Positions 39,244 to 63,167 of a stretch of DNA of 64,000 nucleotides are shown here, piece by piece; position 1 is the first letter of the stretch, and each line of letters starts with the position of its first letter. Made by a program: the position numbers and the translations under genes. A model generated the notes under the pieces. It made no database searches, was not told the origin of the DNA, and saw only the letters and a list, made by a program, of their open reading frames with translations. This DNA is from Thermoplasmata archaeon. GTDB lineage: Archaea; Thermoplasmatota; Thermoplasmata; Lutacidiplasmatales; SKW197. Location of the stretch: positions 22,977 to 86,976 of the forward strand of contig JAVZCK010000009.1 in NCBI GenBank assembly GCA_038874435.1. Reading direction: 5' to 3'.

Positions 39244-42200
39244 TCAGATTACATCGTCCACTTCCCGCTCAATCAGATTGAATTGGGATGCCTCCATTGT
39301 TGCAGGATTTATTGGAATAAGAAGCATTGCATTATTAATTGCAATCTGGTCCTTTAGTGATTGAATTAGACGAAGCACTGTGATAAAATTATTGTTAGTA
39401 ATCAGATACTCAATTCCATCCAGGAAGATAACTGAATCCCTGTTCTTTGATAGGAACTGTTCCAGTATCAAACTTAACTTTTCCAGGTCTTTGGGTCGCA
39501 CTGCATTCTCCTTTCCCACATTTGAGAGCCAGATTATTGGCACATCCTCCAGTTCGTATTTCTGCTTTATCTTCTCAGGATAGTCCCTGGTGACACAGAT
39601 TACCTTCGGGTTTGCCTTTGCCATGTATTCTTTAAGGTATTTGTAGGCCCTATCCGCCCGCTCACATTTGATTATGTAGGAATACCCCTGTCTGAACTCC
39701 ACCGGTTTTTCCTCCATCTCTCCACCACCGATTTTCTCTGGTGTTTTATCACCTTCGTTAGCCACAGCTTGCTCAACCCTAGGTCCACTAACAAGTGGCT
39801 CAGATTGTGTCTGGACTGGCTTGACCCCGAATTCTGCTAGATATCCTAGAATTCGCTTTGCAAGATTTTCTCCAATGGTGGGCATCCTCGCCAGGTCTTC
39901 AATCCTTGCACTTGCAAGCATCTCAACCGTTCTATAACCTGCATCATAAAGGGCTCTTGCTTTTGAGGGGCCAAGCCCTGGAATTGTGTACTTTGTCATC
40001 ATCAACCGCACAAAATTTTCTCGTTCCTTCTCACTTGGCTCTGGTACTTCTGGTTGTAAGGGAGCTTGTTTTTCTGGGATTGGAGTTTCAACTGCCTCTT
40101 TGTGTAATTCCTTCTTAACAGGAACTACCTTCGGCTCTTCTGCTGCCTCCACCTTCCCCTCGGCAACTTCAGGCCTCTGCGTGGAAAAATAACTGACAAT
40201 TTTTTTTGCAAATGTCTTTCCAATTCCTGGAATCTTCTGAAGCTCTTCAGCATTTGCCGTCCTAAGTTTTTCTATTGATACATAGCCAGCATTGAATAGG
40301 GCTTTTCCGCGTTCTGGAGTCATTCCTGGGATTCCCATGAATTTTTCAAGGGTTGACTTGAAGTAGAGTGGAGTGATTCCAAGAACTAATGATGTCTCCC
40401 TGAGGTTCCACTCTACTACATACTCTCCAGGTATCTCTCCAGAAACAAATTCTATGTTTCTCGCATTAACATTGGCCTTTATATTTTCTACAGAGGAAAG
40501 AAGAATATTCTGCAATTGTTCATCTGTAGCAATGTAAAGGTCAATTATATCGTCGATATCCAGGCGCATCTCCTTTCGCATCTCCATGACTATGCGGATA
40601 AAGTTTCTTATGTTGGACTCCAGAATGTCTTCCTCGGTCAGATTCAGGTCTATATACAAATTTCCGTTTGTGATGGGTGCCGACTGCACATTATCTGGCA
40701 GTTTTGATTTGAAGGATACCATGTTGGGAAGAATTCTAACCAATTGCCCTTCAATACCCAGCATGTACTCTCCGCGCTCAATTCCTTCCTTAATTTTCTT
40801 CGCTGATTGAAGTTTCAGCAAATGTCCAATTTTGCTTGCCCATTGTCTGTAAACAAGACCTATCGCAGAGGGATTCGGGACCACTTCTAGGATGAGTTCA
40901 TCCCAGTCCTTACCAAGAGGTAAAATCTCAATTTTTTTTGCATTCACAAACTGAGCAATAATTTTTTCGAAGTCCTTAACACTTTCAAATGTCTCTTCCT
41001 TCTCGGATTTCACAATCACTCTTCTAAGGGGGACTCGTAAAGGAATTCCTACCTTTGATCTTATCTTGTTAATCTCTTTAATAACTTCCATTGCAATTCT
41101 CATCTTTCTCTCGAGTTTATCATCTATGATAAGTTTATTTGCTGTAGGATAGTGCTCAAAGAAAACACTTTCATGCTTGCCATCGTAGGTGAGATAAATC
41201 TCCTCAGCAACATGCGGCGCAAGCGGTGCCAGCATTTTTGCGATGCTGCTCAATGTCTCTACCAAGGCATAGTAGGCAGCCATTTTTTCATGAGATAGCC
41301 CTTTTGTTCTTACCCTCTGTCTTATGGCCTTAATATAGATTCTAGATACCTCTTCTTTGATAAACCTCTCTATATGTCTCCATACTTTGTGATAGGCCAT
41401 TTTATCCATTGCGTCGCTTGCTAGAAGTTTCAGATTTTCAAGGCGTGAGAGAAGCCATTTATCCTCCAGTAATAAATGCTCGCGCACATTTTCGTATGTG
41501 AGGTCTCTGAGCTCGACCTTGTCGTTTCTCATGTATATGTTGGCGAAAACTGCAACATTCCATAATATAGAAAGAGAACGATATATTCCCTTTATTCGTT
41601 CCTCATTGTAAACTAAATCCTGCCATGGTTCTTTGGAGAGAAGATACACCCTTAAAGCATCATAGCCATATCTCCCAGCAAGATTTCTAGGTGTGTCCAC
41701 ATTTGGAGACACGTTGGTAACCAGCTGGTGCTTCTCATCCACTACATGTCCATGAGCAAAAACACTTTGGTAGGGCAGCTTGTCAAAGGCAATATAGCTG
41801 AGCACCATCTGTGAGAAGAACCAATTTTTCGTTTGTGTGTGTGCTTCAACAATAATGTCGACAGGCCAAATGCTGGCAAATTCCTCCTTTTTGGATGGAT
41901 AGCCAATAGAAGCCCATGAAGCTACACCTGAATCTATATACACATCAACTGTATCCTCCACGCGACGCATGTCCTTTCCGCACTTTTCACAAGTAAACAC
42001 AACATTGTTGATCCAAGGAATATGAAGGTACTGGCCTTCCAAAAACCCTTTTCCAGCTTTCAACTCTTGAATTGAAGACACGACCTTTGTGTTACCGCAA
42101 GAGCATTTCCAGATTGGCATAGGAATGCCCCAGTACCTTTGCCTTGAAACACACCAGTCTCCAAGGTTTGAAAGGAAATCATACATCCTACCCGAGCCAA

Positions 42201-43521
42201 CCCATGGGGGAATCCATTTCACTCCCTCAGAGGCCTCCAGCAACCTATCCCGCATTCCTTTTGTCCTGATAAACCATTGCTTAGTCGGAAGATGTAGAAG
42301 TTGAGAGCCACACCGCCAGCAATGCCCAACCCTTATCACTTCCTCCGCTTCTGCGTAGAGTACCTCTCCATCTCTCAAGTCCCTTATGATCAAAGAGTTC
42401 GCATCGTCATACTTAAATCTTGCATATTTGTTTATTATTTTAGAGGTAAAGGTACCATCAATCTCAAACGGATTGAATACTGGTAGGTTGTATTCTTGTC
42501 CTATTTCAAACTCTACAGTACCCATACCCGGTGAAATGAAGAAAGCACCTGTATGAACAGGCTGAACTCTTTTGCTCGTGACAATCTTGTGCACCCATTC
42601 CCCTTTTACCTCCTGATGGTAGGGTACCTCTATCAGTAACGGAGGAATGTACTCAGTGCCTTTCAAGCTCTCTCCCTTAATCGTTTCTATAATCTCGGTA
42701 CTCACATGATTTCTAAGAGCGAGAATTTTTTCTGCATTCTGTTTACACGTGATTAGGATCTGCTCCTCTTCCCCTGTTTTCACCTTCACCTTTACATACT
42801 CTTCATCTGGATTTACTGCAATCGCAAGAGCACCTGTAACTATCCATGGATAAGGTGTCCATACAAGTATAAACTCGTCAGTGCGTCCCTTCAAAGGCAC
42901 GATCACATAAACTCCATGAACCTTTGCCTCCTTGTATTCAACCTCATTGTCTGAAATCGCGGTTTCACATCTTGGGCAGACAGGAACTACTCTTTCCAGC
43001 TCAACAAGGAAGCCACGCTCATAAGCCCTCGCAATGCTCCACCACACAGAGGAAATGTACTCATCTGAAAGAGTGATGTAAGCTCGGTCCCAATCAAACC
43101 AGATGCCTAGCATTTTGTATTCTTCAATCATTTTGTTCTTATTTTCAAATGTAAAACTCCTGCATTTTTCAATGAATTTGTCAAGTCCATACCTTTCAAT
43201 TTCTCTCTTCCCTTTTAGCATCAAGCTCTGCTCGAGCATGATTTCGATTGAAACGCCATGCATATCAAAGCCAGGTATCGCTATCACGTTTTTTCCATTC
43301 ATCAAATTATATCTGATCAATACGTCCTTCAGTACCTTATTTCTAGCATGCCCCATGTGCACAATTCCTGTTGCAAAAGGGGGACCATCCAGAATGAAAA
43401 ACTTTTCGGATTTCTCCCTTGCTTTTTTCACCTTCTGATAAGCTTTCTGTTCCTCCCAGTACTTGAATATCTTTGTTTCCAATGCCTGAAGATTGAACTC
43501 CTTCTGAATATCCCTAATCAT
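39244..43521 (-). CDS. ileS: Isoleucyl-tRNA synthetase-like protein with C-terminal 2x(HhH)2 + DUF835 extension and degenerate KMSKS/editing motifs
   Basis: ORF track, 1425 aa. PPFATGIVHMGHARNKVLKD (HIGH region), WCVSRQRYWGIPMPIW and Zn knuckles CPRCE, CWRCG, CEKCG support IleRS. LVTNV sits where KMSKS is expected. About 375 extra C-terminal residues follow. Confidence 0.8.
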   Translation of the reverse strand: MIRDIQKEFNLQALETKIFKYWEEQKAYQKVKKAREKSEKFFILDGPPFATGIVHMGHARNKVLKDVLIRYNLMNGKNVIAIPGFDMHGVSIEIMLEQSLMLKGKREIERYGLDKFIEKCRSFTFENKNKMIEEYKMLGIWFDWDRAYITLSDEYISSVWWSIARAYERGFLVELERVVPVCPRCETAISDNEVEYKEAKVHGVYVIVPLKGRTDEFILVWTPYPWIVTGALAIAVNPDEEYVKVKVKTGEEEQILITCKQNAEKILALRNHVSTEIIETIKGESLKGTEYIPPLLIEVPYHQEVKGEWVHKIVTSKRVQPVHTGAFFISPGMGTVEFEIGQEYNLPVFNPFEIDGTFTSKIINKYARFKYDDANSLIIRDLRDGEVLYAEAEEVIRVGHCWRCGSQLLHLPTKQWFIRTKGMRDRLLEASEGVKWIPPWVGSGRMYDFLSNLGDWCVSRQRYWGIPMPIWKCSCGNTKVVSSIQELKAGKGFLEGQYLHIPWINNVVFTCEKCGKDMRRVEDTVDVYIDSGVASWASIGYPSKKEEFASIWPVDIIVEAHTQTKNWFFSQMVLSYIAFDKLPYQSVFAHGHVVDEKHQLVTNVSPNVDTPRNLAGRYGYDALRVYLLSKEPWQDLVYNEERIKGIYRSLSILWNVAVFANIYMRNDKVELRDLTYENVREHLLLEDKWLLSRLENLKLLASDAMDKMAYHKVWRHIERFIKEEVSRIYIKAIRQRVRTKGLSHEKMAAYYALVETLSSIAKMLAPLAPHVAEEIYLTYDGKHESVFFEHYPTANKLIIDDKLERKMRIAMEVIKEINKIRSKVGIPLRVPLRRVIVKSEKEETFESVKDFEKIIAQFVNAKKIEILPLGKDWDELILEVVPNPSAIGLVYRQWASKIGHLLKLQSAKKIKEGIERGEYMLGIEGQLVRILPNMVSFKSKLPDNVQSAPITNGNLYIDLNLTEEDILESNIRNFIRIVMEMRKEMRLDIDDIIDLYIATDEQLQNILLSSVENIKANVNARNIEFVSGEIPGEYVVEWNLRETSLVLGITPLYFKSTLEKFMGIPGMTPERGKALFNAGYVSIEKLRTANAEELQKIPGIGKTFAKKIVSYFSTQRPEVAEGKVEAAEEPKVVPVKKELHKEAVETPIPEKQAPLQPEVPEPSEKERENFVRLMMTKYTIPGLGPSKARALYDAGYRTVEMLASARIEDLARMPTIGENLAKRILGYLAEFGVKPVQTQSEPLVSGPRVEQAVANEGDKTPEKIGGGEMEEKPVEFRQGYSYIIKCERADRAYKYLKEYMAKANPKVICVTRDYPEKIKQKYELEDVPIIWLSNVGKENAVRPKDLEKLSLILEQFLSKNRDSVIFLDGIEYLITNNNFITVLRLIQSLKDQIAINNAMLLIPINPATMEASQFNLIEREVDDVI

Positions 43522-49364: not shown

Positions 49365-52352
49365 ATGGCGGAGTTTCCTCTCGTGGATAGGCACAAAGAG
49401 CTTACGTTTCTGACAGAGCGGCTGAAGAGGGTAGAAGATGGCGATGGCTGTGCAGTTCTTTTGAAAGGAGATACAGGGACTGGTAAAACTAGATTATGCC
49501 AGGAACTTCTTATGCTTGCATATGACAAGGGTTTCAGTACATTATCTGGTTGGTGCATATCACAGAGCGTCCAGCCCCTAATTGCTTTTGAAGATGCACT
49601 AAAAGGAGTTGGTCTTCAGCATCTAATTGAGGAAGGAAAGCCTCCGAAAATTGAAGGTATTTATTTTTTTAACGCAAATAATTTGATCTGGAGCATTGAG
49701 CGGGAGCGTATCAAGGCAGAGGAAGTGAGCTATGAGAAAGTTAGGAGTTTTGTTTTCAGGGAGGCGGAGAAGCCAGTTGATGGTGAAGAAGGGTCTGTTA
49801 GAATAACAAGATATGGAAATTATGAGGCAATACACATGAACCACGGAGATCTAAACCTGTGTGTTATCACATATGGAAGGGTGAGGGAGACCCTCGTTCG
49901 TGACCTTCAAGGAATTTTAATAAGGAATCAGGTAGGGGAGCATGAAGCAATTAAATCTGAATGTGGAAACTTGATGAGGTCAGGAAAATATGATGGAATT
50001 GACTGGGCTCAAGGCATACATGACGCAAAAAAGCTGAATCTATTTGAGAATCTGTTACTCGGGCTAAAGAGATATGCGGAAAAACAGCCAGTCGTATTGT
50101 TTATAGATGACCTTCATCTTGCAGATACAGCTACAATTGAACTTTTCCTTTACATTGCTAGAAACATCAAAAAAGCAAAAATATTGCTCTTGGGAACTCT
50201 AAATACTGAGAGCGGTGTAATCCCTGAGAACTGGAAAGAGATTCTCCATCAGATTGAGTTGGAGCAAATTATAGAGACACTTGTTTTGAAGAATCTTTCT
50301 CCAGAAGAAGTAGGAGAGATTTTTTGCATGGTGACAGGCATAAAGTTATCGTATGAGCTTGAGCGTCTAATTTACGAAGTTACGGGTGGGAACCCATTGT
50401 TTGTCGCAGAATATCTTCAGCATCTCAAGCGTAGTTATACTTTCAGAACTGAGCAGGACATGATAAAAATTCTGAAATCTGGGAAACTCCCAGAAACCCT
50501 TTCTAACCTCGTGCTTACAAAATTTGAGAAGCTGCCAAAAATTGAACGGGATGTTTGCATCACCATTTCAGTTCTGAGGTTTGCAGAACCACAGCTTTTG
50601 TCAAGTATCTGTGGCATTCCAGCAAAAGATGTTTCTCATGTGCTTTGTAATCTCCAGGAGCGAGGGATTCTAGCAATGCAGGGCACCTTCTGGAAGTTTG
50701 TAAACTCAACGTTTTCAGAGGCAATCTATACAATGCTCAGTAACACGAGAAGGGTTTACCTCCATCGGAAAGCCCTAGCAAATTTGTTAGCTGACTACAG
50801 CACTGATGAAAGATTTTTTGGAGAAATTCTGAGGCACGGCTTGATTTTGAATAACAAAGAAGTGGTTCAGGAGTATGGAATGAAAGCTGGTGATGCAGCA
50901 ATGTCAAGGTACTCCGTAAATGAGGCCATAGAAAATTACATGGCGGCGATAAATGCGGCGGATGAAGAAAAAAGAAAGAAGTTTCTCCCAAAAGTGCTGA
51001 AAGCTCTTGAAATCGTGTCAAGACATGATGAATGCATAGGACTGATAGATAAAGCATTGAAGAGTGCCAAAGAGCCAAAAGAGAGAGCCGAGTTGTTTCG
51101 CAGAAAGGCGGAGGTTTTGATAAAGAAGGGAGAGTACACCGAGGGAATGGCATGTGCGAGGGAAGCGTTGCAAATCCTTCAGGCCGGAAAAGAACAATGT
51201 GAGGATGAAGACCTAGCAAAAGTTTATAGTGTGATTGGCGTTCTTTACGAGAGAAAGGGGGGATATACAGACGCAATGCGATGGGAAGGCAAAGCTCTTC
51301 AGATTCTTGAAAAACTGGAGGGCACGGAAAGCACCCTCTCTTTTGTTTACAATAGAATGGGCGTAGTGTGTTGGCATATAGGTGACTACAAAACAAGTGA
51401 ACTCTACTATAAAAAAAGCTTGGAAATTGCTCAGAAGAAAAATGATCTAGTAGCTATATCAAGATGTTATAACAATCTGGGCGTGCTTTACCGAAACAAA
51501 GGTGAGTTGGGGAGAGCCCTTGAATTTTATCTCAAAAGTTTGGAAATTGACGAAAAAATTGGAGATAGATGGGGAATTGCAGGCACATGCAATAACATTG
51601 GAGTAGTGTATCATGAGATGGGAAATATTCCCGAATCATTGGAATACTACAATCGTGCCCTTGAAATAGAGAGAGAGGTGGGAGACCTCTGGGGCATTGC
51701 CCTCCTCAATAATAATCTTGGCATTGGATACTTTGAAATGGGAATTTTGGACAAATCTTTAGAGCATTACAAAACTGCATTGACCATTTATGAGAGAGTT
51801 GGTGATTCCAAAGGCACTGCCATTGTTTACAACAACATTGGTGATGTCTACAGCATGTATGGCGACTATGAAACTGCTAGAGAATACTACAACAAAAGTG
51901 TGGAGATGTGCAGAAGAATTGGGGCGATAGATTATCTATTTAACCCAATTCATGGCCTTGTAGAAATCTCACTTTCTCCTTCTGCTATGCCGTATTGTGA
52001 AGAAAAGCTGAGGGAGTTGCAGGAGATTGCTGAAAAGTTATCAGATAGGAAAAAAATTACAATGGTAAAAGCGATGAAAGCCAGAGTGGAGACAGTGAAG
52101 GGCAATATACATGAGGCAAAAAGGTTGTTTCAAGATGCAGAGAGAAATTTTGAGGAGTGTGGAGAACTCATAGACCTGGCAAAGGTGCGGTATTACTATG
52201 GGATTTTTGAAATAAAAGTTGGAGAAAAAGAGGAAGCAAGAAAATTGCTTCGGGCTGCTGAAAAAATGTTCTCAAAATTTAATATGGCTGGCTGGAGGCA
52301 ACGCGCAGAGTTAGCTTTGGGAGCGATCGATGGTGAATCCCTCAGGGATTAG
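49365..52352 (+). CDS. STAND-class P-loop NTPase (AAA_16-like) with TPR array, paralog 2 (carries a ~110-aa insert between Walker A and B)
   Basis: ORF track, 995 aa. LVDRHKELTFL, Walker A GDTGTGKT, Walker B VLFIDDLHLADTAT. Canonical TPR units (YNNLGVLYRNKGELGRALEFYLKSLEI, etc.). Confidence 0.8.
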   Translation: MAEFPLVDRHKELTFLTERLKRVEDGDGCAVLLKGDTGTGKTRLCQELLMLAYDKGFSTLSGWCISQSVQPLIAFEDALKGVGLQHLIEEGKPPKIEGIYFFNANNLIWSIERERIKAEEVSYEKVRSFVFREAEKPVDGEEGSVRITRYGNYEAIHMNHGDLNLCVITYGRVRETLVRDLQGILIRNQVGEHEAIKSECGNLMRSGKYDGIDWAQGIHDAKKLNLFENLLLGLKRYAEKQPVVLFIDDLHLADTATIELFLYIARNIKKAKILLLGTLNTESGVIPENWKEILHQIELEQIIETLVLKNLSPEEVGEIFCMVTGIKLSYELERLIYEVTGGNPLFVAEYLQHLKRSYTFRTEQDMIKILKSGKLPETLSNLVLTKFEKLPKIERDVCITISVLRFAEPQLLSSICGIPAKDVSHVLCNLQERGILAMQGTFWKFVNSTFSEAIYTMLSNTRRVYLHRKALANLLADYSTDERFFGEILRHGLILNNKEVVQEYGMKAGDAAMSRYSVNEAIENYMAAINAADEEKRKKFLPKVLKALEIVSRHDECIGLIDKALKSAKEPKERAELFRRKAEVLIKKGEYTEGMACAREALQILQAGKEQCEDEDLAKVYSVIGVLYERKGGYTDAMRWEGKALQILEKLEGTESTLSFVYNRMGVVCWHIGDYKTSELYYKKSLEIAQKKNDLVAISRCYNNLGVLYRNKGELGRALEFYLKSLEIDEKIGDRWGIAGTCNNIGVVYHEMGNIPESLEYYNRALEIEREVGDLWGIALLNNNLGIGYFEMGILDKSLEHYKTALTIYERVGDSKGTAIVYNNIGDVYSMYGDYETAREYYNKSVEMCRRIGAIDYLFNPIHGLVEISLSPSAMPYCEEKLRELQEIAEKLSDRKKITMVKAMKARVETVKGNIHEAKRLFQDAERNFEECGELIDLAKVRYYYGIFEIKVGEKEEARKLLRAAEKMFSKFNMAGWRQRAELALGAIDGESLRD

Positions 52353-52737: not shown

Positions 52738-55266
52738 TCAGATGCTCTGAAGCAACTCCTTTATCTTGTTCTTCCAGACCTCAGAACCAATTTTCTCACT
52801 AACTGCCAGAGCTCGCTCGAGACATTCGCGTGCCTTCTCCATCTCTCCAGCTCTAATGTACATCTTTCCCAAAGAGGTAAGGGCACTCGCAAGATCTCCT
52901 AGTTTTTCTTGTGTCTCAAAGTAATCAATCACATCAAGGAAGAATTCTTCTGCAATCGAATAATTTTTAGCATAAGTGAGAATCCTTGCCTTCATCATTT
53001 TTATCACAGCTAAATCATCGCTATTTTGGCTATGAATGAATTTTCGCAATACCCTATCAATCTCCTCTTCAGCTTCTTTCACATCTCCTAACGCTGCTAA
53101 CATGCATGCTTTACCAGCTGCAGCACATCCCGCCATACTCAGTTCTCCAATCTCTGCAAATACTGCTTCCGCCCGTGTGTAATAGTCCAGTGCTTTCTGG
53201 TTTTCACCCATTTCGTCGTAAATTGTGCCAATGTTGTAGAGTCCATAGCCAGTGCCGCTTCTATCCCCTATTTTTGTGGTGTATTCTACCTCCTTTTTGA
53301 AATATTCAATTGCCTGATTGTACTCCCCTCTTGCCCAGTGTACAATGCCAATGTTGTTAATCACAATAGAAAGTCCATACACGTCTCCGATTTTGTGGTA
53401 AATTTTCTCCGCAGAAAGCAGGTACGGTAGGCCTTTCTCAGGGTGTCCTGTGTTTAGGTAGAAGAGTCCAAGTCCATTACATGAACTTGCAATCTCTCGC
53501 ACATTTTTGAGTTCTTCCCGAAGCTTATAAGCTTCCAGAAGATTTTTCTCCGCTTCTTTGTAGTTCCCCATCTGCTGCAATAAGACCCCAGTGGAGTTCA
53601 GAATATCGGCTCTCAACTTTTTGTTATCTAAACCTTTCACAATTTCGCTTGCCTTGGAATATTTTTCCAGTGCTTGCTCAAGCTTTCCCCACTTAAAATA
53701 CACACTTCCTTCCACAAACAACGCTTCTGCTTTAACATCTAGATTCTCCAATGCAGATGATGGGATTTTTTTCAAAAGAGATAGTGCATCTTCATACCTC
53801 GCCATCTTCACATAGTCGTTGGCAAGATGGAAAATTATCTCAGCAACATCCTTATCATCAAATGTGAGTGCGAGTGCTTTTTCATAATATTCAATTCCTT
53901 TCTGGAAGTCAGAAATTACCGAAAATGCATAACCAAGAGTTTTGTATATCTTGGCCTTTAGTCCATCAGCTACCCCTAATTTCTCTCCATATTCAAGTGC
54001 ATACTGGGCATTTCTAAGACAGTCCTCAATTGTAAAATTTCTAAGATAGTACACTGCACTTTTCAAGTAATATTCAGCGCACTCAGGTAACCCTGCAATG
54101 CTTAGATGTCTTCCAATCTCTTCGAAAAACTCTTCCCTATTTTTGGTTTTAATTAAATATTCCGCCATTCTTTTGTGGACTTCAGAGGCTTTGGTTTTTG
54201 GAACCATTGAGTAGAGTGTCTCGTATACTGGATTGTTAAGAAACAGGTATCGTTCCTCCGTACCCACTTTCTCTACGAGGAATCCCATCGCAATCATCTT
54301 TTCAATGCACTCGAGAATAACCTCTTCCTCCAGACCGATTACTGCACAAGCGTCTTCGTATGCGAATTCTCTGCCGAGAATTGAAAGGAGACACATCGTC
54401 TCTCTCATATCTTTATCTAGGGCTTTTATTCTCTTCTGGTACGCGGCACTGAGGGACAGAGGGATTGTGACTCGCTCTAGCATTTCAATTTTGGCGGCCT
54501 TCTCCTTGAGTGTTTCCATAATCTCCAAAATAAAAAGGGGATTACCAGAGGTCTTTTCATGTATTTTTCTCAGAATCTTGTCGGATAAATCCATGTTCAA
54601 TGTTCCCTTTATCAGAAGGACTGTATCTTGTGCAGAGAGGGGCTTCAAACTCAGAATTTTCAAAACTTTCTCCACATTCATTGTTTTCACTGTGTTATCA
54701 AGGAACTCGTTTGTTTCTTCTACTTCAGATGCAGTTGCCACAAACATGATTCTTGTTTTTCCGATGTTCCTTGCAAGGTAATGGAAGAAGGAAATTGTGC
54801 CACTGTCTGCCCATTGTAAGTCATCAACTAGCACGCAAATGGGAGAGGACCTCGAGAGTTCTACTAGATTACTATAGAGTTGCTCAAACACTCTATACTG
54901 TTCGGAAACAATTCTTTCCCGCTCCACTTTCTCTGCAGTTTCAAATGCAAGTCCTAGGGGGAGCAAGCCACCAGTATCCGAATTAGCAAGGAGTGTGTCA
55001 TATCCTTTCATCACCAATGACTTCACAGTCCCAAAAGGCATTTTATTTTCAGGCGTGCATTTTTCTTGAATGACACTGATACCCTGCTCTGTGGCAATTC
55101 TGCCTGCTTCTTCTAGCAATCGTGTTTTTCCAATACCTGGTTCACCTGTGATAAGAATGGCAAATCCTTCGTTTCTTTCCTTTAGGTTTTTTACTGCGCT
55201 ATTTATCTCCGCAATTTCTTTTTTTCTGTTAACGAATAATGCCTGCACGATTGCACATATGCACAT
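52738..55266 (-). CDS. STAND-class P-loop NTPase (AAA_16-like) with TPR array, paralog 3
   Basis: ORF track, 842 aa. FVNRKKEIAEI, Walker A GEPGIGKT, Walker B CVLVDDLQWADSGT, C-terminal TPR units. Confidence 0.8.
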   Translation of the reverse strand: MCICAIVQALFVNRKKEIAEINSAVKNLKERNEGFAILITGEPGIGKTRLLEEAGRIATEQGISVIQEKCTPENKMPFGTVKSLVMKGYDTLLANSDTGGLLPLGLAFETAEKVERERIVSEQYRVFEQLYSNLVELSRSSPICVLVDDLQWADSGTISFFHYLARNIGKTRIMFVATASEVEETNEFLDNTVKTMNVEKVLKILSLKPLSAQDTVLLIKGTLNMDLSDKILRKIHEKTSGNPLFILEIMETLKEKAAKIEMLERVTIPLSLSAAYQKRIKALDKDMRETMCLLSILGREFAYEDACAVIGLEEEVILECIEKMIAMGFLVEKVGTEERYLFLNNPVYETLYSMVPKTKASEVHKRMAEYLIKTKNREEFFEEIGRHLSIAGLPECAEYYLKSAVYYLRNFTIEDCLRNAQYALEYGEKLGVADGLKAKIYKTLGYAFSVISDFQKGIEYYEKALALTFDDKDVAEIIFHLANDYVKMARYEDALSLLKKIPSSALENLDVKAEALFVEGSVYFKWGKLEQALEKYSKASEIVKGLDNKKLRADILNSTGVLLQQMGNYKEAEKNLLEAYKLREELKNVREIASSCNGLGLFYLNTGHPEKGLPYLLSAEKIYHKIGDVYGLSIVINNIGIVHWARGEYNQAIEYFKKEVEYTTKIGDRSGTGYGLYNIGTIYDEMGENQKALDYYTRAEAVFAEIGELSMAGCAAAGKACMLAALGDVKEAEEEIDRVLRKFIHSQNSDDLAVIKMMKARILTYAKNYSIAEEFFLDVIDYFETQEKLGDLASALTSLGKMYIRAGEMEKARECLERALAVSEKIGSEVWKNKIKELLQSI

Positions 55267-56065: not shown

Positions 56066-56518
56066 ATGCAGGATATGGGAATTTGCTCTGATGCCTTTAT
56101 ATATCCCCTCTTCATCTCCCAAACCATGGTGAGAAATAAAGTAGCGATGGGTGTAGGAATTGCAGGAGGAGTATGCCTACTACTGGCAGGTGTTGGTGGA
56201 GTGGCTTATCTTGGCACAGTAAGAGACATTATACTGCAGGTGATAAACAACGAAATGATTGCTCTGGTATTTTCCATTCTGATTGCAATAGCTGCACTGG
56301 GTGGAATTGCAGTGATAATCGGTGCAGTGCTGATTGGGATTGAGCATCCGAAAATAGGAAAACTGTTTGTCTGGCTTGGCACAGGACTCGGAATAATCGC
56401 ACTTGTGTTCGGAATAATTTCGATTGCTGGCCAGCAGAGTGCAGTTACAATCGGTCCAACTACTCTTGCAATTGTCGGCACAGTTCTGGCAATGGTCTGC
56501 AAGTTTCTGGCAAAATAA
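56066..56518 (+). CDS. Small membrane protein, Gly/Ala/Ile-rich TM helices, unknown function
   Basis: ORF track, 150 aa, with 4 hydrophobic helices. The start may be the internal Met at 56126. Confidence 0.5.
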   Translation: MQDMGICSDAFIYPLFISQTMVRNKVAMGVGIAGGVCLLLAGVGGVAYLGTVRDIILQVINNEMIALVFSILIAIAALGGIAVIIGAVLIGIEHPKIGKLFVWLGTGLGIIALVFGIISIAGQQSAVTIGPTTLAIVGTVLAMVCKFLAK

Positions 56519-56519
56519 C

Positions 56520-58238
56520 TTATTTCTTCTTTTTCTTTTCCTTCCTACTCTTCTTTTGCTTTATCCCCATTGCAAGGTCAGCATATTTCAACGCTAAATC
56601 GTATTTCTCCTGTTTTAGATAGAGATAGGAACGGTTTGCAAGGGCTTCCTTGAAGCCTGGCTTGAGCTTTGTCGCTCGAGAGTAACAGCGTTCCGCTTCT
56701 GCGAATTTGCGCCCTATTAAATATAGATTCCCTAGGTTATTCCAGAGTTCAGGCATTGAGGGTTGCACCCTCACGCCATTCGCATAACACTTGATTGCAT
56801 GTTCATCCTCTCCCTTTGCATGCAGAATATTTCCGTAGAGCAGCCAGGCAATTGCGTTGTTTGGATCGACATCCAACGCATGATAAACTTCAAACTCTGC
56901 ATCCTCGTATCTCTCCATCTTGTAAAACGCATACGCCTTCAGCAGTTTCAGTTCGCCAAAATTCGAAAATGTAGTTTTTGCCAGCCGAATCATTTTTGGT
57001 TCGTTAACACTTTCGCCCTTCTCCTCAAGCATCTTTCTTATGTAATCCATCGCATTTTTTTCAGCACGGAGACAATATCTCATTGCCAGCACATAGTTTA
57101 GATGCACGCAACTTTCATAAGCATTTTTTATGTCAAACTCAATCCAATTTTCTACCTGATCTCGTTTTCCTAAGATTTTCTTGTAATCTAAGAGCAGATT
57201 TCCCCCAACGACACCAAGCAGATAAAAATCTATTAGCCCAAAGTGGAGATAACCGCTGTAGGTCATTATTGCAGGTGGAGGTGCACCTCCACCCATTGTG
57301 ATGAGCAAATGCTTGAATGTAATTCCACCGCCCACTATAGCTGCAAAGAGGAAAAGAGTAGAAAGAAAATTCATTTTGTAGTTTTCAACCTTCGGTAATT
57401 TTTTGAGTGAATAGGCCAGAAGGGAGATACCGGCAATTGCGAAAACTATGTAAACCACGAGTCGAAATAGCCAGTCTCGAATTATTATGATGTAGAAATT
57501 TTCACATAGTGGAATAAAGTAAAGCAGAAAAACGCCGACAGCAGTTATGAGTAGAAAGCGATTTTCATTTTTTTCCAGTCCTTTTATCTCTCTTCTAGCG
57601 GCAAATATTGCAGATGCAAAAATCACCCCGAGAAACAGAGAGTAAACCAACGCAAAGCTGTCTATGTTGAGGAGGAAAAAGTTGTTCGGTGTGTACAGGA
57701 TATACAGAAAGCCAAGAAAGTAGCCCAGAAGGAAGATTAGGAAGGAATATGCAGCAAGGTTCACAAGAAAATCTGTTTCAAGGGAGATGAACTTTTTCTT
57801 GTATCTTTCTCTGAAGGGCTTTCTTGAAAACAGTTTGTCCACAATTGTAGGAACAGTGTTGATTGCTGTGTCGTCAAACTCCATTTTCCTGATGAAGTTT
57901 CGTTGCTGTTCGCTCAACGCCTTTTGTTCTGCAAGCACCTCAGGCAATGGAAGTTCTTCCAGTCTAAACTCTGGCTTTTTCACCTCTTTTTGTGGTTCTA
58001 ACTGCGGTTGCTCCACCAGCGTTTCAGAAACCGCCTTCTCAGTAAGCTGTTCTTGGTTTTCCTTGTCCTCCCGCACCTGTTCAACCTGTTCTGCACCTGC
58101 ACTGTTTTCCTGGATGTATGGCTCAACAGGTAGGTTTTCCTCCTCCTCTGGAATTATCACACCGCAATTAGGGCATTCGTTTCCTTTCAGCTTTGTTCCG
58201 CAAATCGGACATTCTTTTTTAGCCATTTTCTCCTCCAT
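56520..58238 (-). CDS. Zn-ribbon / multi-TM / C-terminal TPR membrane protein
   Basis: ORF track, 572 aa. CPICG..CPNCG ribbon, acidic linker, about 7 TM helices, C-terminal TPR units (AIAWLLYGNILHAKGEDEHAIKCYANGVRV, ELWNNLGNLY...), poly-Lys tail. Confidence 0.7.
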   Translation of the reverse strand: MEEKMAKKECPICGTKLKGNECPNCGVIIPEEEENLPVEPYIQENSAGAEQVEQVREDKENQEQLTEKAVSETLVEQPQLEPQKEVKKPEFRLEELPLPEVLAEQKALSEQQRNFIRKMEFDDTAINTVPTIVDKLFSRKPFRERYKKKFISLETDFLVNLAAYSFLIFLLGYFLGFLYILYTPNNFFLLNIDSFALVYSLFLGVIFASAIFAARREIKGLEKNENRFLLITAVGVFLLYFIPLCENFYIIIIRDWLFRLVVYIVFAIAGISLLAYSLKKLPKVENYKMNFLSTLFLFAAIVGGGITFKHLLITMGGGAPPPAIMTYSGYLHFGLIDFYLLGVVGGNLLLDYKKILGKRDQVENWIEFDIKNAYESCVHLNYVLAMRYCLRAEKNAMDYIRKMLEEKGESVNEPKMIRLAKTTFSNFGELKLLKAYAFYKMERYEDAEFEVYHALDVDPNNAIAWLLYGNILHAKGEDEHAIKCYANGVRVQPSMPELWNNLGNLYLIGRKFAEAERCYSRATKLKPGFKEALANRSYLYLKQEKYDLALKYADLAMGIKQKKSRKEKKKKK

Positions 58239-61200
58239 AATATAGGTATTAAGATTAAACCGGCAAAAATGAGAATGTTTTGCGAATGTTCTGGCACATT
58301 AGCACCCTTTTCTGTAGCAATGTCCGTCCATCCATACCATGAACTGCTATCTGGATAGCGGATGTAGGAAACACCTGATTGGGAAGATGGAATTGTAACA
58401 CTGTCTATCGTGGTTGTACTAAATCTCAACGCAACGATTGAATCTGTTGTCACCTCTATGCTCACAACATAATGTGTCGCAGTAGTGTGCTCTGTAATGT
58501 GCACAACCGCATATGTCTCATTAGGATATAAAACAACAACTCTATAATTGTGTAGATCAATACCAGATGGGTTATAAATTTCGACCCATTCATTGGAAAT
58601 TTCATTCAGGTATGGTCCCGGATTTCTTGTTCCCAAAAATGCCCCGTTCTCGTTGAGCATTGTATCGGAAAAATCAAATTCCTTCTTCCAGTTGGTCATG
58701 TAGAAGAGTACATTCACCTCCTTTGGAAGATTTGTTGAAGCCATAATTTCAATTCTGTAGGCATCAGGCACCGCAAGAATGGTTGCGTTTAGTTCATGCC
58801 AGAGCCATTGCTCACCTCTCGCAATTCCCTGGAATCCATAGAGTTTTGCACTTTTAACTTTTCCAGCAGTGCCAAGAACCTCAATTTTGTATTCGGCACC
58901 AATTGGTCCGACCATGTAACCAGAGCCAGGATATTTGTCAGCATCAATGTAAACGATGCACGCATCCTCTGAGTTAGGAATTGTGGTGTTTATCTCATGG
59001 ACATCAACAACATTTCCTGGCTGTAAATAACTCTCATTTCTCCTCTCAAAATCATGGAGCACAACAGCACCACCCAGCATTCTTCCATAGCTACTTAGAT
59101 AGAAAAATGCCCTGTTTTCTTCTGTGTGCATCCCAAACCCAGCAATGTCCACATTTCTGGATGTGCCTTCCTTTTCGTTTTCACGACCTGGTGTTGGCAT
59201 ACCTACACCTGCACGTACATCATTTTCTCTGTCTCCATATTTTGGAATCCCTTCCCAATCAGCAAAGCCCCCATCAATCGTAAGATTCTGCTCTGCCTCA
59301 AAAATGTAAGAGAAGAAAGGAGCGACAGGGTAGACAGTAACTTCGCTTTCCTCCACCTCCACAGAAGCAATCTCAAGACAGAGAGTGGCTCTGCTGTCAT
59401 TCAGTGGCTCAACCATCAGAGTAAAGTTTCTTGCAGTTTCTTGTTCAAGCGAGAGATTGAGAGGAAAAAGAATACTCTGGTAATCTATAACACCACTTAC
59501 ATTTGTCCCATCAAACGAGAGCCAGTAATTACAATCATCCAGTTTTGCAGTGCTTCCGTTTACGAGATTGAAACAGAGATTTTTGAGCATCGTTGGCTTT
59601 CCCGTCTGCCAAACTGTAAGTTGCATGAAATCCGATTTGTCAGCGAGCACATCGGGAGCAACAATTCTCTGATAAACTTCAGTTGCGCCCTTTGGATTCA
59701 CAAATCTGGGTGATGCTTCCTCTGAAATTGCATCCGTGAAGACAAACTGGAGGGCTGCACTTGCACTTAGTGCTTTGGATGCCACAAAAACTCCTTCAAC
59801 TGCCTTCCCGTCCTTTCCCAGAGCGCATTTAAGGTCATAAGGACCAAATCTCTGGTTGCCAGCGATTATGTAGTAAACAGAGGAGGTAATAAATCCACCC
59901 CATCCAGTCAATTCTATCTCATAGCCAGTGCCTGCGGCAATCACATTGCCGCTCTCAAATCTTGCTCCTGTCTCTGGAATCCCATCTTCATCCACAAATC
60001 CAACAACACACTCTGCTCTCTCGCCAAAGAAAGTGGTTCTTGTGAAGCCGATTGTAAAGTATAGCTTGCCGTCAAAGAAGTAAGAGGAGGCAGTTGTTAT
60101 GTTCTTTCCATTCCATTTTCCATATAGGGTAACTTGCTGTGCGGCAATGAGATTCTGCCAGTCACTGAAATCTCCATCAATTACCACTGGTGGTTTGGGA
60201 AGCAGGAAAAATCCTAGGAGGGGGAGAAGGAAGAGAAGCAAGGCAATCAGTGCAGCCATTCTTTTTCGCAATGCCCTTCCAATCTCTTTCTGTTTCTCAC
60301 GCTTCAGCTTTTCGCCATAAGCCAATGCCCTTCCGTTTATCAATCCCCTTCCATTTATCAAACCCTTGCCGTTTATTAGCCCCGTCTTTAAAAGAAGTTT
60401 TTTGCCATTCACAAGTCCCTGGCTCAGGATTGCCTCGCTTGGAGTTTTGATTTTTCCATTCACCTTACCATTAACAAGTCCTTTTCCATTTATCAAGGGC
60501 TGACCAAGGAATTTCTTACCATTCACAAGGCCATACTTCATGCCTGCTTTGTCCACAACATCAATACCAGGTGTCTCCCTTCCTCTCTCACCTTTTCCGA
60601 GGACTTCCAAACCAATCTCAGGAACAAAAAACTCACCACTGTATCGCTCGATCTTGACTTTTAAGTTAGTACCTACGACTTCCGCAGAGAATAGCCCATC
60701 TGATAGATTTTCTATGTCTGGGAAAAGTTTTGTGCAAGTATGGATAGCAAGAGCCCGTGCATTTGAAATTTTTATGCAGGTAGTAGTAAAGAATTTGATA
60801 GCTGTATCAGTATCATATCTAAGTAGGCTTTCGTCTAGGAAATCAAACACTGCAAGAACTTTTGGAAAATCTGCCACTGTCTCCAGGCCTTTAGTTATGC
60901 CCATCCCGAAGTTTGCAATATCTCCATCACACACGATTTTTCCATCTTTTTCCTCGACACCAACCACTTTCTTGGTTTTGTGGGTGCACCAGTCAACAAG
61001 TATGATACTCTTTCCAATTCTTTTTTCAACATCTGGAATTCCAAGTTTGAGAAAGTCGAGCCACTTCTGAGCGGAAATGCGCGTGCATGTGAGCACAAGT
61101 GCACCCTCGCTCTTCAGGAAGACAGAGAAGAGGTCTAAATAGAGCGGAAGAAGGATTTCAGTGTCAGATGCAACTACTAAAAAGTTTGTTCCTCTGTCTA

Positions 61201-61873
61201 CCTCTTTCAGCATCTCACTGAGCTTACCAGGGATTTCAATCGTGTCACTGAAGGCACCGAAATAGATGTCGTTTAGCACAACTTTGTATTCCGATTTTTC
61301 CCTGTATCGTTCGTAAATCTCTTCGCAAATTTTGCGTGTGATTTTTCTTGCTTCTGGCTCTGCAAAACTGAAAATTTTAAAAAACCTGGAAAAAGCATCA
61401 GCTAAAATTTTTATGGCATTCTCTCTGTTGATTTTGTCTGTGTTTATTATTACTTTTCCCACCTTTGCTTCTGCATGGAAACCAGGATTCTTTTCCATGA
61501 ATTCTCTGAAAATCTCGTTCAGTTCCTCGCTGAGTTTCCAGTTATTTGTTTCTAAAATTTCTGTAAAAATTAGTGTATATATTTCAGAGACAGGTTCTAC
61601 TGGGAACTTCTCCTCTTTGACTAAAAGTGATTCTGGCACATACTTTTTGAATTCATCATCCAACTCATTGATGCGAGTGATAAACTTTTTTCTTGCGGTT
61701 TCTCCATGAACTGTGGTAATAACTTCCACAACGACAGGAAAAATTTCACCTAGTGCCTTCAACGCTTCCTCGCTATCCTCAACAGGAAATCTTATCACCA
61801 GGTCCTTTGTGACCACGAGGTTAGAGAGGATGGGATGCTTTTTTGCTACCTTCCTTATCCCAACTCTAAGCAT
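58187..61873 (-). CDS. Large bitopic signalling-like protein: cytoplasmic P-loop-less KaiC-like domain, GL(V/I)NG(K/R) repeats, TM, two DGxFxDW beta-sandwich domains, lamin-tail-like domain, C-terminal TM
   Basis: ORF track, 1228 aa. KaiC-like region GTNFLVVASDTEILLPLYLDLF...IILVDWCTH lacks GxxGxGKT. TM MAALIALLLFLLPLLGFFLL. IDGDFSDW and IDGGFADW segments. NEWVEIYNPSGIDLHNYRVVV. C-terminus PEHSQNILIFAGLILIPILWRRK. Confidence 0.7.
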   Translation of the reverse strand: MLRVGIRKVAKKHPILSNLVVTKDLVIRFPVEDSEEALKALGEIFPVVVEVITTVHGETARKKFITRINELDDEFKKYVPESLLVKEEKFPVEPVSEIYTLIFTEILETNNWKLSEELNEIFREFMEKNPGFHAEAKVGKVIINTDKINRENAIKILADAFSRFFKIFSFAEPEARKITRKICEEIYERYREKSEYKVVLNDIYFGAFSDTIEIPGKLSEMLKEVDRGTNFLVVASDTEILLPLYLDLFSVFLKSEGALVLTCTRISAQKWLDFLKLGIPDVEKRIGKSIILVDWCTHKTKKVVGVEEKDGKIVCDGDIANFGMGITKGLETVADFPKVLAVFDFLDESLLRYDTDTAIKFFTTTCIKISNARALAIHTCTKLFPDIENLSDGLFSAEVVGTNLKVKIERYSGEFFVPEIGLEVLGKGERGRETPGIDVVDKAGMKYGLVNGKKFLGQPLINGKGLVNGKVNGKIKTPSEAILSQGLVNGKKLLLKTGLINGKGLINGRGLINGRALAYGEKLKREKQKEIGRALRKRMAALIALLLFLLPLLGFFLLPKPPVVIDGDFSDWQNLIAAQQVTLYGKWNGKNITTASSYFFDGKLYFTIGFTRTTFFGERAECVVGFVDEDGIPETGARFESGNVIAAGTGYEIELTGWGGFITSSVYYIIAGNQRFGPYDLKCALGKDGKAVEGVFVASKALSASAALQFVFTDAISEEASPRFVNPKGATEVYQRIVAPDVLADKSDFMQLTVWQTGKPTMLKNLCFNLVNGSTAKLDDCNYWLSFDGTNVSGVIDYQSILFPLNLSLEQETARNFTLMVEPLNDSRATLCLEIASVEVEESEVTVYPVAPFFSYIFEAEQNLTIDGGFADWEGIPKYGDRENDVRAGVGMPTPGRENEKEGTSRNVDIAGFGMHTEENRAFFYLSSYGRMLGGAVVLHDFERRNESYLQPGNVVDVHEINTTIPNSEDACIVYIDADKYPGSGYMVGPIGAEYKIEVLGTAGKVKSAKLYGFQGIARGEQWLWHELNATILAVPDAYRIEIMASTNLPKEVNVLFYMTNWKKEFDFSDTMLNENGAFLGTRNPGPYLNEISNEWVEIYNPSGIDLHNYRVVVLYPNETYAVVHITEHTTATHYVVSIEVTTDSIVALRFSTTTIDSVTIPSSQSGVSYIRYPDSSSWYGWTDIATEKGANVPEHSQNILIFAGLILIPILWRRKWLKKNVRFAEQS

Positions 61874-61941
61874 ATCTAGATGGATAAGGTTCCTGTGTTC
61901 TCGAAGAAGTTCTTGAACTGTTCTTCTAAACTCCTCCAGCG

Positions 61942-62631
61942 TCAGACCACCTTCTCACTTGCACCTATCTCCAGTCCTCTATCTCCGATTATAAAGGGGT
62001 GTTTTGCAGTATCATGCTTTGTAAAACGCATCTTTCTTATCAATATTGTCCTTCTCAAAGTGCCTTTTATCTCTTCAAGCCCAAGGACGATGAATGCATC
62101 GCAAACAAACTGCTCAACTCCAAACCGCGTGTAGGGTCCGTTTTCAATGCTTTCAGTTGTGAGCACTGCAGTAACCCTCTTTTTCTTTAAAAATCTGGTA
62201 AAACCAAACAAATGCTCCCTGAATTCTTCTACGGTTCGGTAATGGAGCCCAATAGCTGTGATGGAATCAATTACAAGTCGCTTGATTGCTTGCCTTTCTA
62301 GAAAATCCTCGATAAATTGCTGGAGTGTAGGGAAATCAAGCTGAATTTCCTCTCCACATATCTCACCAAGGTCTATGAGCCAGAACTTGTCTGTATCTTC
62401 GGGATTCATTCCGAATCCGGAAATTGCCTGAAGATAGTCCTCCTTAGGGGCTTCTATTGTAATCACCGCACTGGGTTCGTTGAGGAAACGAGCACCGAAG
62501 AAAGCATACTGTGCACTGAAAAGGGTTTTACCACTTCCAGCCACTCCAGAAACAAGGTTGACAGTGCCTTCAACAAAGCCACCATCGGTAAGCACATCAA
62601 AGCCGGGAATTCCTGATTTTACTCTCTGCAT
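61942..62631 (-). CDS. Single-domain KaiC/RadA-like (RecA-superfamily) ATPase
   Basis: ORF track, 229 aa. GIPGFDVLTDGGF, Walker A GVAGSGKT, Walker B RLVIDSIT. Size and motifs match archaeal KaiC-like signalling ATPases (COG0467). Confidence 0.8.
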   Translation of the reverse strand: MQRVKSGIPGFDVLTDGGFVEGTVNLVSGVAGSGKTLFSAQYAFFGARFLNEPSAVITIEAPKEDYLQAISGFGMNPEDTDKFWLIDLGEICGEEIQLDFPTLQQFIEDFLERQAIKRLVIDSITAIGLHYRTVEEFREHLFGFTRFLKKKRVTAVLTTESIENGPYTRFGVEQFVCDAFIVLGLEEIKGTLRRTILIRKMRFTKHDTAKHPFIIGDRGLEIGASEKVV

Positions 62632-63167
62632 TTAATCATCTCCTCAAGTCGCTTTATCACTTCTTTATTTGTGAGATATTCCAGCACCTCTCGGGATAAG
62701 TTCTTTACACTATGGTTGAGCACAACCTCTGCAGCTGTGCTTCCTACTCTGGTTTTTATCAAAGAGAGCACCTCGTACGGGTTTTTTGTGTTCGTGTTCA
62801 GGTGCTGGCTGAAAAGTGATGCATAGGATTGAAGCAGGGAATTTGCCAGGATATCAAGCTTACCCTCATCCAGCGAGAGTACCTCCAGATTGAGGAGAAG
62901 CACTACCTGTTTTTTTGCTAATGAATAAACCTCGGTTTTCCTTATGTGTTTCCGCTTTATCTCTTCCTGGACAATACCCTTCTCTGCAAGCTTTTTCAGA
63001 TATTTTTTCGCAGTGGCAATGTGAATTTTGAGGGCTTTGGCTACATCCGTCGCGGTTCCCTCTCCGTTAAGGTATAGATGTTCTAGAATTTTCACTGTTA
63101 CAGGTTCACTGAAGAGCTTTGCCATTTCCACAAATTCTCTGAACTTTTCCGACATAACTTCACACAT
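62619..63167 (-). CDS. Winged-helix (ArsR-like) transcriptional regulator with C-terminal helical domain
   Basis: ORF track, 182 aa (alternative ATG at 63155). VTVKILEHLYLNGEGTATDVAKALKIHIATAKKYLKKLAEKGIV. Overlaps the KaiC-like gene by 13 nt. Confidence 0.65.
   Translation of the reverse strand: MCEVMSEKFREFVEMAKLFSEPVTVKILEHLYLNGEGTATDVAKALKIHIATAKKYLKKLAEKGIVQEEIKRKHIRKTEVYSLAKKQVVLLLNLEVLSLDEGKLDILANSLLQSYASLFSQHLNTNTKNPYEVLSLIKTRVGSTAAEVVLNHSVKNLSREVLEYLTNKEVIKRLEEMIKCRE

Follow-up and report, generated by a model that had tools for sequence, protein, structure and literature searches.

KaiC-like ATPases have been proposed as hubs of archaeal signalling, and inactivated KaiC domains (iKaiC), DUF835 and MEDS are counted among archaeal signalling modules (PMC5847659, citing Makarova et al. 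2017). Two such ATPases, CirA of Haloferax volcanii and ArlH, regulate motility and have been studied experimentally (PMC10983859), and the hub proposal rests largely on comparative genomics together with a few studied proteins such as these two. Here we describe a locus in a 64,000-nucleotide (nt) stretch of DNA (hereafter the window) from a Thermoplasmata archaeon (assembly GCA_038874435.1, contig JAVZCK010000009.1, positions 22,977-86,976 of the forward strand), in which four consecutive minus-strand open reading frames (ORFs; 56520-63167) encode a winged helix-turn-helix (wHTH) regulator, a KaiC-like ATPase of 229 amino acids (aa), a protein of 1228 aa and a protein of 572 aa, in that order. 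We put at roughly one half the probability that this locus is a membrane-linked form of a KaiC/iKaiC module found throughout the Thermoplasmatota, one that signals through the state of KaiC to the wHTH protein.

The archaeal KaiC/iKaiC hubs share with this locus an active single-domain KaiC, a KaiC domain whose P-loop is destroyed, a wHTH neighbour and a predicted signalling role. The principle of signalling through inactivated KaiC domains is not new here, because it has already been published (Makarova et al. 2017, as cited in PMC5847659). Compared with the iKaiC examples in PMC5847659, two things differ: the iKaiC domain of the window is the predicted cytoplasmic head of a double-anchored surface protein of 1228 aa (probably 1252 aa), and the active KaiC gene and the iKaiC gene form a pair that is obligately adjacent across the phylum. 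The fusions described there (REC-iKaiC, REC-DUF835, HalOD1-iKaiC and MEDS; PMC5847659) have a layout different from that of the window. A full-text literature search (DUF835, DUF7504, iKaiC, Thermoplasmata) found no description of a phylum-wide obligate KaiC/iKaiC pair, of its fusion to a giant double-anchored surface protein or of the strict association with a helix-turn-helix (HTH) gene; a listing in Makarova et al. 2017 is possible.

Several other systems offer instructive comparisons. ArlH with its partner ArlI, and likewise CirA, are single-domain KaiC-like proteins with nucleotide- or phosphorylation-dependent binding of a membrane partner and control of a surface structure (PMC10983859 and references cited in it), whereas here a dead KaiC domain takes the place of a secretion-type ATPase as partner, the locus has no archaellum genes, and the ArlH model scores only 29 bits on the 229-aa KaiC against a cut-off of 215. 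The KaiABC system with SasA and RpaA is similar in that the state of a KaiC-fold ATPase is read out to a DNA-binding regulator, as we propose here, and its ring stacking is a plausible analogue; it differs in that KaiC has one domain here and would be membrane-tethered, with no KaiA or KaiB seen and no histidine kinase or response regulator. RecA-fold subunits without catalytic residues that assemble together with active relatives, or in the same way as these, are also known from Elp4/5/6 and from the Rad51 paralogue complexes, and 15 of the 38 iKaiC relatives described below match PAXNEB (Elp4), but these are eukaryotic complexes of tRNA modification and recombination with no link to the membrane or to transcription. 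Finally, the tail of the large protein looks like that of PEF-CTERM/archaeosortase proteins (TIGR03024), with P-E-[FH] followed by a hydrophobic helix and a basic cluster, and the tails of its relatives match that model weakly; it differs from them in that the window tail reads PEH and in that an N-terminal cytoplasmic head and a transmembrane (TM) helix replace the signal peptide. Against this background, the locus provides a defined and widely conserved test unit—one active KaiC, one dedicated dead-KaiC partner and one dedicated wHTH—with natural variants for comparison, namely soluble versus membrane-spanning and fused versus split partners.

Results

To describe the distribution of the pair, we used the 229-aa KaiC to query one genome of each species, called ORFs and searched them with the window proteins and with a hidden Markov model of the iKaiC family. 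This returned 70 KaiC loci with 39-93% identity, all of them in metagenome-assembled genomes (MAGs) of Thermoplasmatota; 69 were informative, and they come from several orders. In 65 of these 69 a gene of the iKaiC family (E 1e-22 to 1e-154) starts between -38 and +68 nt from the KaiC stop. Soluble partners measure about 650-930 aa and consist of an N-terminal domain (N-domain) with either one iKaiC domain or two. Membrane partners, at 1220 to >3200 aa, begin directly with iKaiC, which is often followed by tetratricopeptide repeats (TPR) and a Zn ribbon, and after this head come 6-24 GxxNG repeats and one TM helix, then two DGxFxDW modules, distal parts that vary, and a tail composed of IPEF, a hydrophobic stretch and basic residues. 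An HTH homologue stands directly upstream of KaiC in every membrane-type locus that has upstream DNA (25/25) and in none of the soluble-type loci (iterative search), and the clades in a neighbour-joining tree of the KaiC proteins follow the type of partner. In most lineages iKaiC and ectodomain are encoded by a single gene; in two loci, L068 (10699-16385) and L072 (5941-11938), they are separate adjacent genes, the iKaiC protein being 335-364 aa long with few GxxNG repeats. Given the conserved adjacency, the co-variation of KaiC with its partner and the events of domain fusion and fission, we consider it very likely that the two proteins are functionally linked. Since one MAG (JBMFNP01) carries both the membrane-type module L010, whose KaiC is 78% identical to that of the window, and a KaiC/iKaiC pair from another clade (L047), several insulated paralogous pairs can coexist.

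All four minus-strand ORFs lie where the initial annotation had placed them, and the same order recurs, with an exact match of the large protein, in NCBI MAG contigs from GCA_038870955.1 and GCA_038883375.1 that match the window. Among the observations that would speak against its reading, that annotation had named a lack of synteny in any relative, but synteny does exist. The full four-gene order, together with a convergent gene for a 150-aa protein, occurs in the three closest relatives only (L008, L009 and L010), and it is in these loci alone that the gene for the 572-aa protein (gene 4) lies downstream of the large gene. Gene 4 is therefore lineage-specific, and the conserved unit is HTH, KaiC and iKaiC partner.

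Another such observation would have been the absence of a RecA/KaiC fold from the cytoplasmic region of the large protein, for which a KaiC-like region with a dead P-loop had been claimed. As direct and library searches gave nothing significant, this kinship is visible only through intermediate sequences and structure. A BLASTP comparison between the large protein and the 229-aa KaiC found nothing significant, phmmer with the large protein found no match in the PDB, and Pfam and NCBIfam gave only sub-threshold matches to DUF7504 and Firmicu-CTERM, with DUF7504 (PF24336) scoring 14.2 bits on the whole protein and 17.1 bits on the domain alone against a gathering score of 27. The iKaiC domain on its own also stays below the Pfam KaiC threshold, and NCBI annotates the protein as hypothetical. 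An exhaustive HMMER (phmmer) search of 1.84 billion representatives with residues 1-433, on the other hand, found 39 proteins, including a fragment of the large protein of the window itself, the other 38 having at most ~30% identity and E values down to 4.7e-19; a word-indexed protein search with the family alignment gave 3 proteins and added nothing. Pfam KaiC recognises 36 of these 38 relatives and DUF7504 recognises 27, beside the PAXNEB matches mentioned above. Many are soluble proteins of ~860 aa that align to window residues 2 to ~404 and are built from the N-domain, a degenerate KaiC domain (in some cases two) and a coiled coil; the N-domain of the window protein aligns with them over its full length and is modelled by AlphaFold2 with a confidence (pLDDT) of ~80-90, with no match in Pfam.

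A profile of 15 family sequences, compared with the PDB, matched the KaiC entry 8zn5 (E 1.7e-24) and the single-domain archaeal proteins PH0284 (3.6e-17), PH0186 and SSO2452 (1e-12 to 1e-17 for the three). Both the CI and the CII domain of bona fide KaiC align with it, and it reaches 80% probability against the neighbouring 229-aa KaiC in hhalign. The AlphaFold2 model built on the family alignment of the cytoplasmic region has a pLDDT of 85 and a pTM of 0.71, and Foldseek places residues ~206-420 closest to PH0284 (2dr3; target TM-score, TMt, 0.69-0.71, root-mean-square deviation 3.5-5.4), followed by SSO2452 and KaiC CI/CII. By profile, model and structure comparison alike, these residues have a RecA/KaiC fold, and one that has lost its catalytic residues. 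The P-loop position reads ASDTEIL in the window and GPxxxEK in the family consensus, compared with GxxGxGK[ST] in KaiC, the Walker A Lys/Thr being gone; at the position of the catalytic Glu the family alignment shows LTCTRIS in the window, without the Glu. Sequence comparison further indicates that the domain is not decaying, because its divergence from L008 and L009 is low at non-synonymous sites (dN 0.16-0.22, with synonymous divergence, dS, saturated), like that of the rest of the protein, and because the motif VDWxT..KVVGxEE..G..CDGDIANFGxGITK is conserved among orthologues beside a former P-loop that varies freely (ASDTEIL, APDHECL, ARDIELL, TQEFDVL).

The neighbouring KaiC, in turn, is predicted to be an active ATPase with apparently intact catalytic motifs. 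Pfam KaiC covers residues 4-225 of its 229 (E 3.2e-55, 187.5 bits against a cut-off of 26.6), the Walker A (GVAGSGKT) and Walker B (RLVIDSIT) motifs are those already pointed out in the initial annotation, and the catalytic Glu lies in ITIEAP, where the first Glu is retained and the second is replaced by Ala. The 68 KaiC orthologues keep GxxGS[GA]K[ST], LEE and the Walker B Asp. The protein falls under every NCBIfam equivalog cut-off. A bona fide circadian KaiC has two tandem KaiC domains in ~500 aa and scores above the equivalog cut-off, and the window protein, with one domain in 229 aa, is not of this kind (PRK09302 / TIGR02655; 149 bits against 408, 125 against 546). As a separate observation, the sister-clade loci L011, L012 and L013 (1400-8200) carry four more KaiC-like genes within 9 kb upstream of the HTH-KaiC-partner trio, forming a KaiC-rich island, and one of these four is fused to TPR in L011 and L013.

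The run is headed, as had been noted before, by a gene whose product is predicted from Pfam matches to be a DNA-binding winged-helix regulator (HTH_24, E 2.1e-6, 27.6 bits against a cut-off of 21.9; TrmB, E 4.7e-6, 26.8 bits against 25.6). Its wHTH occupies residues ~20-85 and resembles those of Csa3 and CasR (PADLOC models), and its C-terminal half is helical, with no family match. An alternative start at the ATG at 63155, which is NCBI's choice, would give 178 aa; a TATA-like TATAAAAA lies ~55-60 nt upstream. The HTH and KaiC ORFs share the 13 nt that the initial annotation had reported, the HTH stop lying past the KaiC start.

One part of that annotation needs revision, namely the 68-nt gap between KaiC and the large ORF. 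The distance from the KaiC stop to the annotated ATG is indeed 68 nt, but the stretch is almost certainly translated and under codon-like purifying selection, as judged from alignment with the orthologues: nearly all substitutions among the window, L008 and L009 hit the third base of a codon when the stretch is read in the large gene's frame, and the more distant orthologue L010 has an ATG that overlaps the KaiC stop (ATGA) at the codon that reads CTG (cTGA) in the window (61945-61943), L008 and L009. The extension translates in the window as L-TLEEFRRTVQELLREHRNLIHLD-M and the homologous stretch of L010 as MTLSEFKKIIMDLLQEYRDKINID-M, and the peptide TLEEFRRTVQELLREHRNLIHLD corresponds to the helix at the N terminus of soluble members of the iKaiC family. 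There is no in-frame ATG, GTG or TTG from the upstream stop at 61957-61955 to 61873. Most likely, then, the large gene starts at 61945 and encodes 1252 aa. This would imply initiation at a near-cognate CUG or termination-reinitiation coupled to the translation of KaiC, starts which to our knowledge have rarely been documented in archaea; a -1 frameshift out of the KaiC frame is less likely. If the gap is coding, KaiC and the large gene are translationally coupled. RNA structure in the 68-nt stretch was ruled out as an explanation, the fold being unremarkable (z-score -0.34) and the conservation codon-like.

Beyond its head, the large protein has the hexapeptide repeats, membrane helix, pair of DGxFxDW domains and C-terminal membrane anchor that the initial annotation had listed. 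Six exact GL[VI]NG[KR] copies occupy residues 448-515, and relatives have 6-24 GxxNG copies at the same position, always directly before the TM helix. The repeats have no match in Pfam, and a left-handed beta-helix (Hexapep) was considered for them and dropped for want of a Pfam hit. Hydropathy and charge predict that the N-terminal side of the first TM helix is inside. In the ectodomain, the motifs read DGDFSDW at residue 566 (nt 60158-60178) and DGGFADW at residue 867 (nt 59255-59275), with homologous ectodomains in the relatives P0001-P0006 and in the loci. AlphaFold2 models residues 556-1195 as all-beta with moderate confidence (pLDDT 64, from 9 sequences), and Foldseek relates the model only to generic beta-sandwich arrays with low TM-scores, for example integrin legs, complement MG domains, glucodextranase and adhesins. 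The claimed lamin-tail-like segment fares less well in the window protein, where the lamin-tail domain (LTD, PF00932) matches the segment at ~nt 58334-58606 (residues ~1090-1180) weakly and over 23 residues only (13.8 bits against 34.3, E 0.077); it is significant after the second DGxFxDW module in the homologues P0003 (E 2e-12) and P0004 (2.5e-10). The C-terminal tail looks like a PEF-CTERM-like signal: the orthologue L009 has IPEF where the window has PEH, and the TIGR03024 PEF-CTERM model (cut-off 23) gives 21.3 bits on the tail of L013 (E 2.3e-4), 17.4 bits on that of L046 (3.9e-3) and no match on that of the window. As had been claimed, the DGxFxDW module is also present twice, with motifs at residues 203 and 505, in the protein encoded at 21813-25943 on the plus strand (BLASTP E 2e-10). 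This is another surface protein, with an N-terminal Zn ribbon, a charged linker, a TM helix, the two modules, a BNR/sialidase-like domain and a C-terminal TM helix, and without GxxNG repeats or iKaiC.

Discussion

How might such a module work? If the locus is a membrane-linked signalling module, the dead KaiC head would dock on an oligomer of the active KaiC, either intercalated in a mixed RecA-like ring or stacked on it, and stacking would mirror that of the CI and CII rings of bona fide KaiC. Docking would tether the ATPase beneath the membrane and cluster the surface protein, so that a change at the ectodomain (contact, ligand or envelope state) could alter the assembly and thereby shift KaiC in its ATPase or autophosphorylation state, and this state would decide if the wHTH protein, which is translationally coupled, is retained or set free for transcription control. 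The gene 4 protein may serve as a lineage-specific scaffold that supplies separately the TPR and Zn-ribbon modules fused in sister lineages. Both the heteromer and the direction of signalling towards transcription are steps that we infer. Should the pair form a mixed or stacked ring, it would show a dead RecA-fold domain coupling a cell-surface protein to an ATPase switch, and a large family of surface proteins of the Thermoplasmatota, now annotated as hypothetical, would gain a function.

A number of observations weigh against this proposal. One locus, L046 (8244-15345), consists of two HTH genes, KaiC and a 1489-aa protein which has the layout of repeats, TM helix and ectodomain and no iKaiC; as the cytoplasmic head of that surface protein contains six Zn ribbons and a SAP domain instead, iKaiC is not the sole possible adaptor. 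The closest relative with the full architecture outside the lineage, P0001 (1617 aa), has the N-domain, iKaiC, repeats, TM helix and two DGxFxDW modules of the window protein and stands without a KaiC or HTH neighbour. Soluble-type modules have neither a membrane link nor an HTH gene, so that the core function of KaiC and iKaiC requires neither. The Walker A of most KaiC orthologues reads GSAK and not GSGK, and of the two Glu residues only one is present in the KaiC of the window. Finally, Pfam and NCBIfam recognise no ligand-binding sensor domain in the ectodomain, and the enzymatic or adhesive distal modules of the relatives would fit a structural or display role equally well.

A bolder version of the signalling module, which we entertain only tentatively, is that the Thermoplasmatota possess an integrin-like, outside-in KaiC device, in which a ring of dead-KaiC heads, co-assembled with a dedicated active KaiC, would cluster the double-anchored surface proteins that bear these heads and the nucleotide or phosphorylation state of the mixed assembly would gate the wHTH protein, the soluble pairs being its cytoplasmic ancestors. 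If true, this would constitute a third major prokaryotic receptor-to-gene logic beside two-component and Ser/Thr-kinase systems, and the KaiC signalling network proposed for archaea would have its first case with a defined mechanism.

The main rival is a machine for anchoring or assembling a surface protein, rather than a sensor: the KaiC ring would act through the iKaiC head to organise, cluster, insert or remodel an envelope protein with ATP, from the inside out, and the HTH protein would only autoregulate the operon. A structural envelope protein would be useful to a lineage that often lacks a surface layer (S-layer). The ectodomain indeed looks like a displayed adhesin-like or structural beta-sandwich array rather than a classical small-ligand sensor, resembling integrin legs, complement MG domains and adhesins and containing no classical sensor domain in Pfam or NCBIfam, and both ends of the protein are membrane-anchored, with a PEF-CTERM-like tail. 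Relatives with the same layout of repeats, TM helix and ectodomain vary both outside (subtilase, BNR, CBM9, LTD or FG-GAP) and inside (Zn ribbons, helix-hairpin-helix (HhH) or TPR), which also favours such a machine. What it explains less well is the restriction of the HTH gene to membrane-type partners: the wHTH occurs strictly with these and is absent from the soluble type, which suggests a transcriptional output linked to the membrane connection. Moreover, soluble KaiC/iKaiC pairs occur without any surface protein, and signalling is the role in which iKaiC domains are known elsewhere (PMC5847659). On balance we regard the anchoring machine as possible but doubtful.

A KaiC-based timer appears improbable. 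It would be a split two-ring KaiC, with an active ring stacked on a dead one, that runs through a slow cycle of ATPase activity and phosphorylation and is read out by the HTH protein. The alignment of the family profile to both CI and CII would suit it, as would the soluble partners with two tandem iKaiC domains, which are laid out like a dead KaiC, and the tight coupling of the pair (ATGA in L010, cTGA in the window); however, the neighbourhood showed no homologue of KaiA or KaiB, the KaiC lies far under the circadian equivalog cut-offs given above, and nothing in clock systems corresponds to a giant surface protein as fusion partner. That the genes are unrelated neighbours or part of an anti-phage defence island, as the numerous KaiC-like paralogues of archaea, two STAND-like AAA_16 + TPR genes nearby and the Csa3/CasR-like wHTH might suggest, is highly improbable, the first of these being effectively refuted by the synteny (adjacency in 65/69 loci at 39-93% KaiC identity across several orders, overlapping or near-touching frames, fusion and fission variants) and the second rejected because PADLOC has no match for KaiC or the large protein and matches the wHTH only.

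Other features of the locus and its surroundings

The coordinates of all features of the locus are collected in Table 1.

Table 1. Features of the four-gene locus and the convergent gene (window coordinates).
Feature	Position	Strand	Remarks
Predicted winged-helix transcription regulator	62619..63167	-	182 aa from first ATG; Pfam HTH_24, TrmB
Single-domain KaiC-like RecA-superfamily ATPase	61942..62631	-	229 aa; Pfam KaiC PF06745
Probable 5' extension of large gene	61874..61945	-	24 codons; CTG start over KaiC stop (cTGA)
Large ORF	58187..61873	-	1228 aa (probably 1252)
N-domain, residues 1-205	61259..61873	-	Mostly helical, two beta-hairpins; also in soluble KaiC partners
Predicted inactivated KaiC-like (iKaiC) domain, residues ~206-420	60614..61258	-	Family profile, AlphaFold2 and Foldseek
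GL(V/I)NG(K/R) hexapeptide repeats, predicted cytoplasmic juxtamembrane, residues ~445-516	60326..60541	-	Six exact copies plus degenerate ones
Predicted TM helix, residues 537-560, N-in	60194..60265	-	Hydropathy 2.86; strongly basic stretch KLKREKQKEIGRALRKR just before
Predicted ectodomain, residues 561-1195 (~635 aa)	58289..60193	-	Two DGxFxDW beta-sandwich modules, intervening beta domains, weak LTD-like segment
Predicted C-terminal membrane anchor	58187..58288	-	PEH, hydrophobic stretch, RRKW
Gene 4, Zn-ribbon / 6-TM / TPR membrane protein	56520..58238	-	572 aa, or 568 aa from Met-5 at 58226
Gene 4, Zn ribbon	~58161-58211	-	
Gene 4, TM block	~57189-57773	-	
Gene 4, TPR	~56559-56966	-	
Convergent small 4-TM protein	56066..56518	+	150 aa; 1 nt between its stop and gene 4 stop

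The composition of gene 4 had been read correctly from the outset: TPR_1 matches with E 2.5e-14 (52.8 bits against 27.8), the Zn ribbon CPICG-x9-CPNCG is present in the sequence although DZR remains under its cut-off (E 6.6e-4, 20.2 bits against 27.3), and hydropathy predicts six TM helices, with the Zn ribbon and the TPR both predicted to be cytoplasmic when the positive-inside rule is applied by hand. The overlap with the large ORF, given initially as about 40-50 nt, is 52 nt from the first ATG of gene 4 and 40 nt from Met-5, which is the start chosen by NCBI and has GGAGGA 7 nt upstream. Gene 4 looks like a split-off form of modules that the sister KaiC clade (L011-L014) carries within the partner protein, since TPR and Zn ribbon lie there between iKaiC and the repeats; iKaiC, TPR and Zn ribbon occur in one protein in L013, L026, L076 and P0023. 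The convergent gene for the 150-aa protein recurs in L008, L009 and L010 (E 3e-74 to 3e-51) with its position and orientation unchanged, and its product has no match in Pfam or NCBIfam; it is possibly associated with the cluster, its membership being uncertain.

Further observations concern the rest of the window. A few kb downstream of the four-gene cluster, two large AAA_16 + TPR (STAND-like) proteins are encoded on either side of a cytidine deaminase gene (49365-52352 on the plus strand and 52738-55266 on the minus strand), and both genes recur in the two NCBI MAG contigs. At 39244-43521 (minus strand), a 1425-aa ORF combines a complete class I tRNA synthetase (tRNA-synt_1, Anticodon_1, DUF5915) with HhH repeats and a C-terminal DUF835 (E 3.8e-36), which is counted as an iKaiC-type domain (PMC5847659); a housekeeping enzyme and a signalling module in one ORF are an unusual combination and an apparent fusion. 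The product of 28956-33257 (minus strand; 1433 aa), with an N-terminal PKD and many matches to OB-fold (tRNA_anti-codon-like) repeats, looks like another large surface protein of unusual composition.

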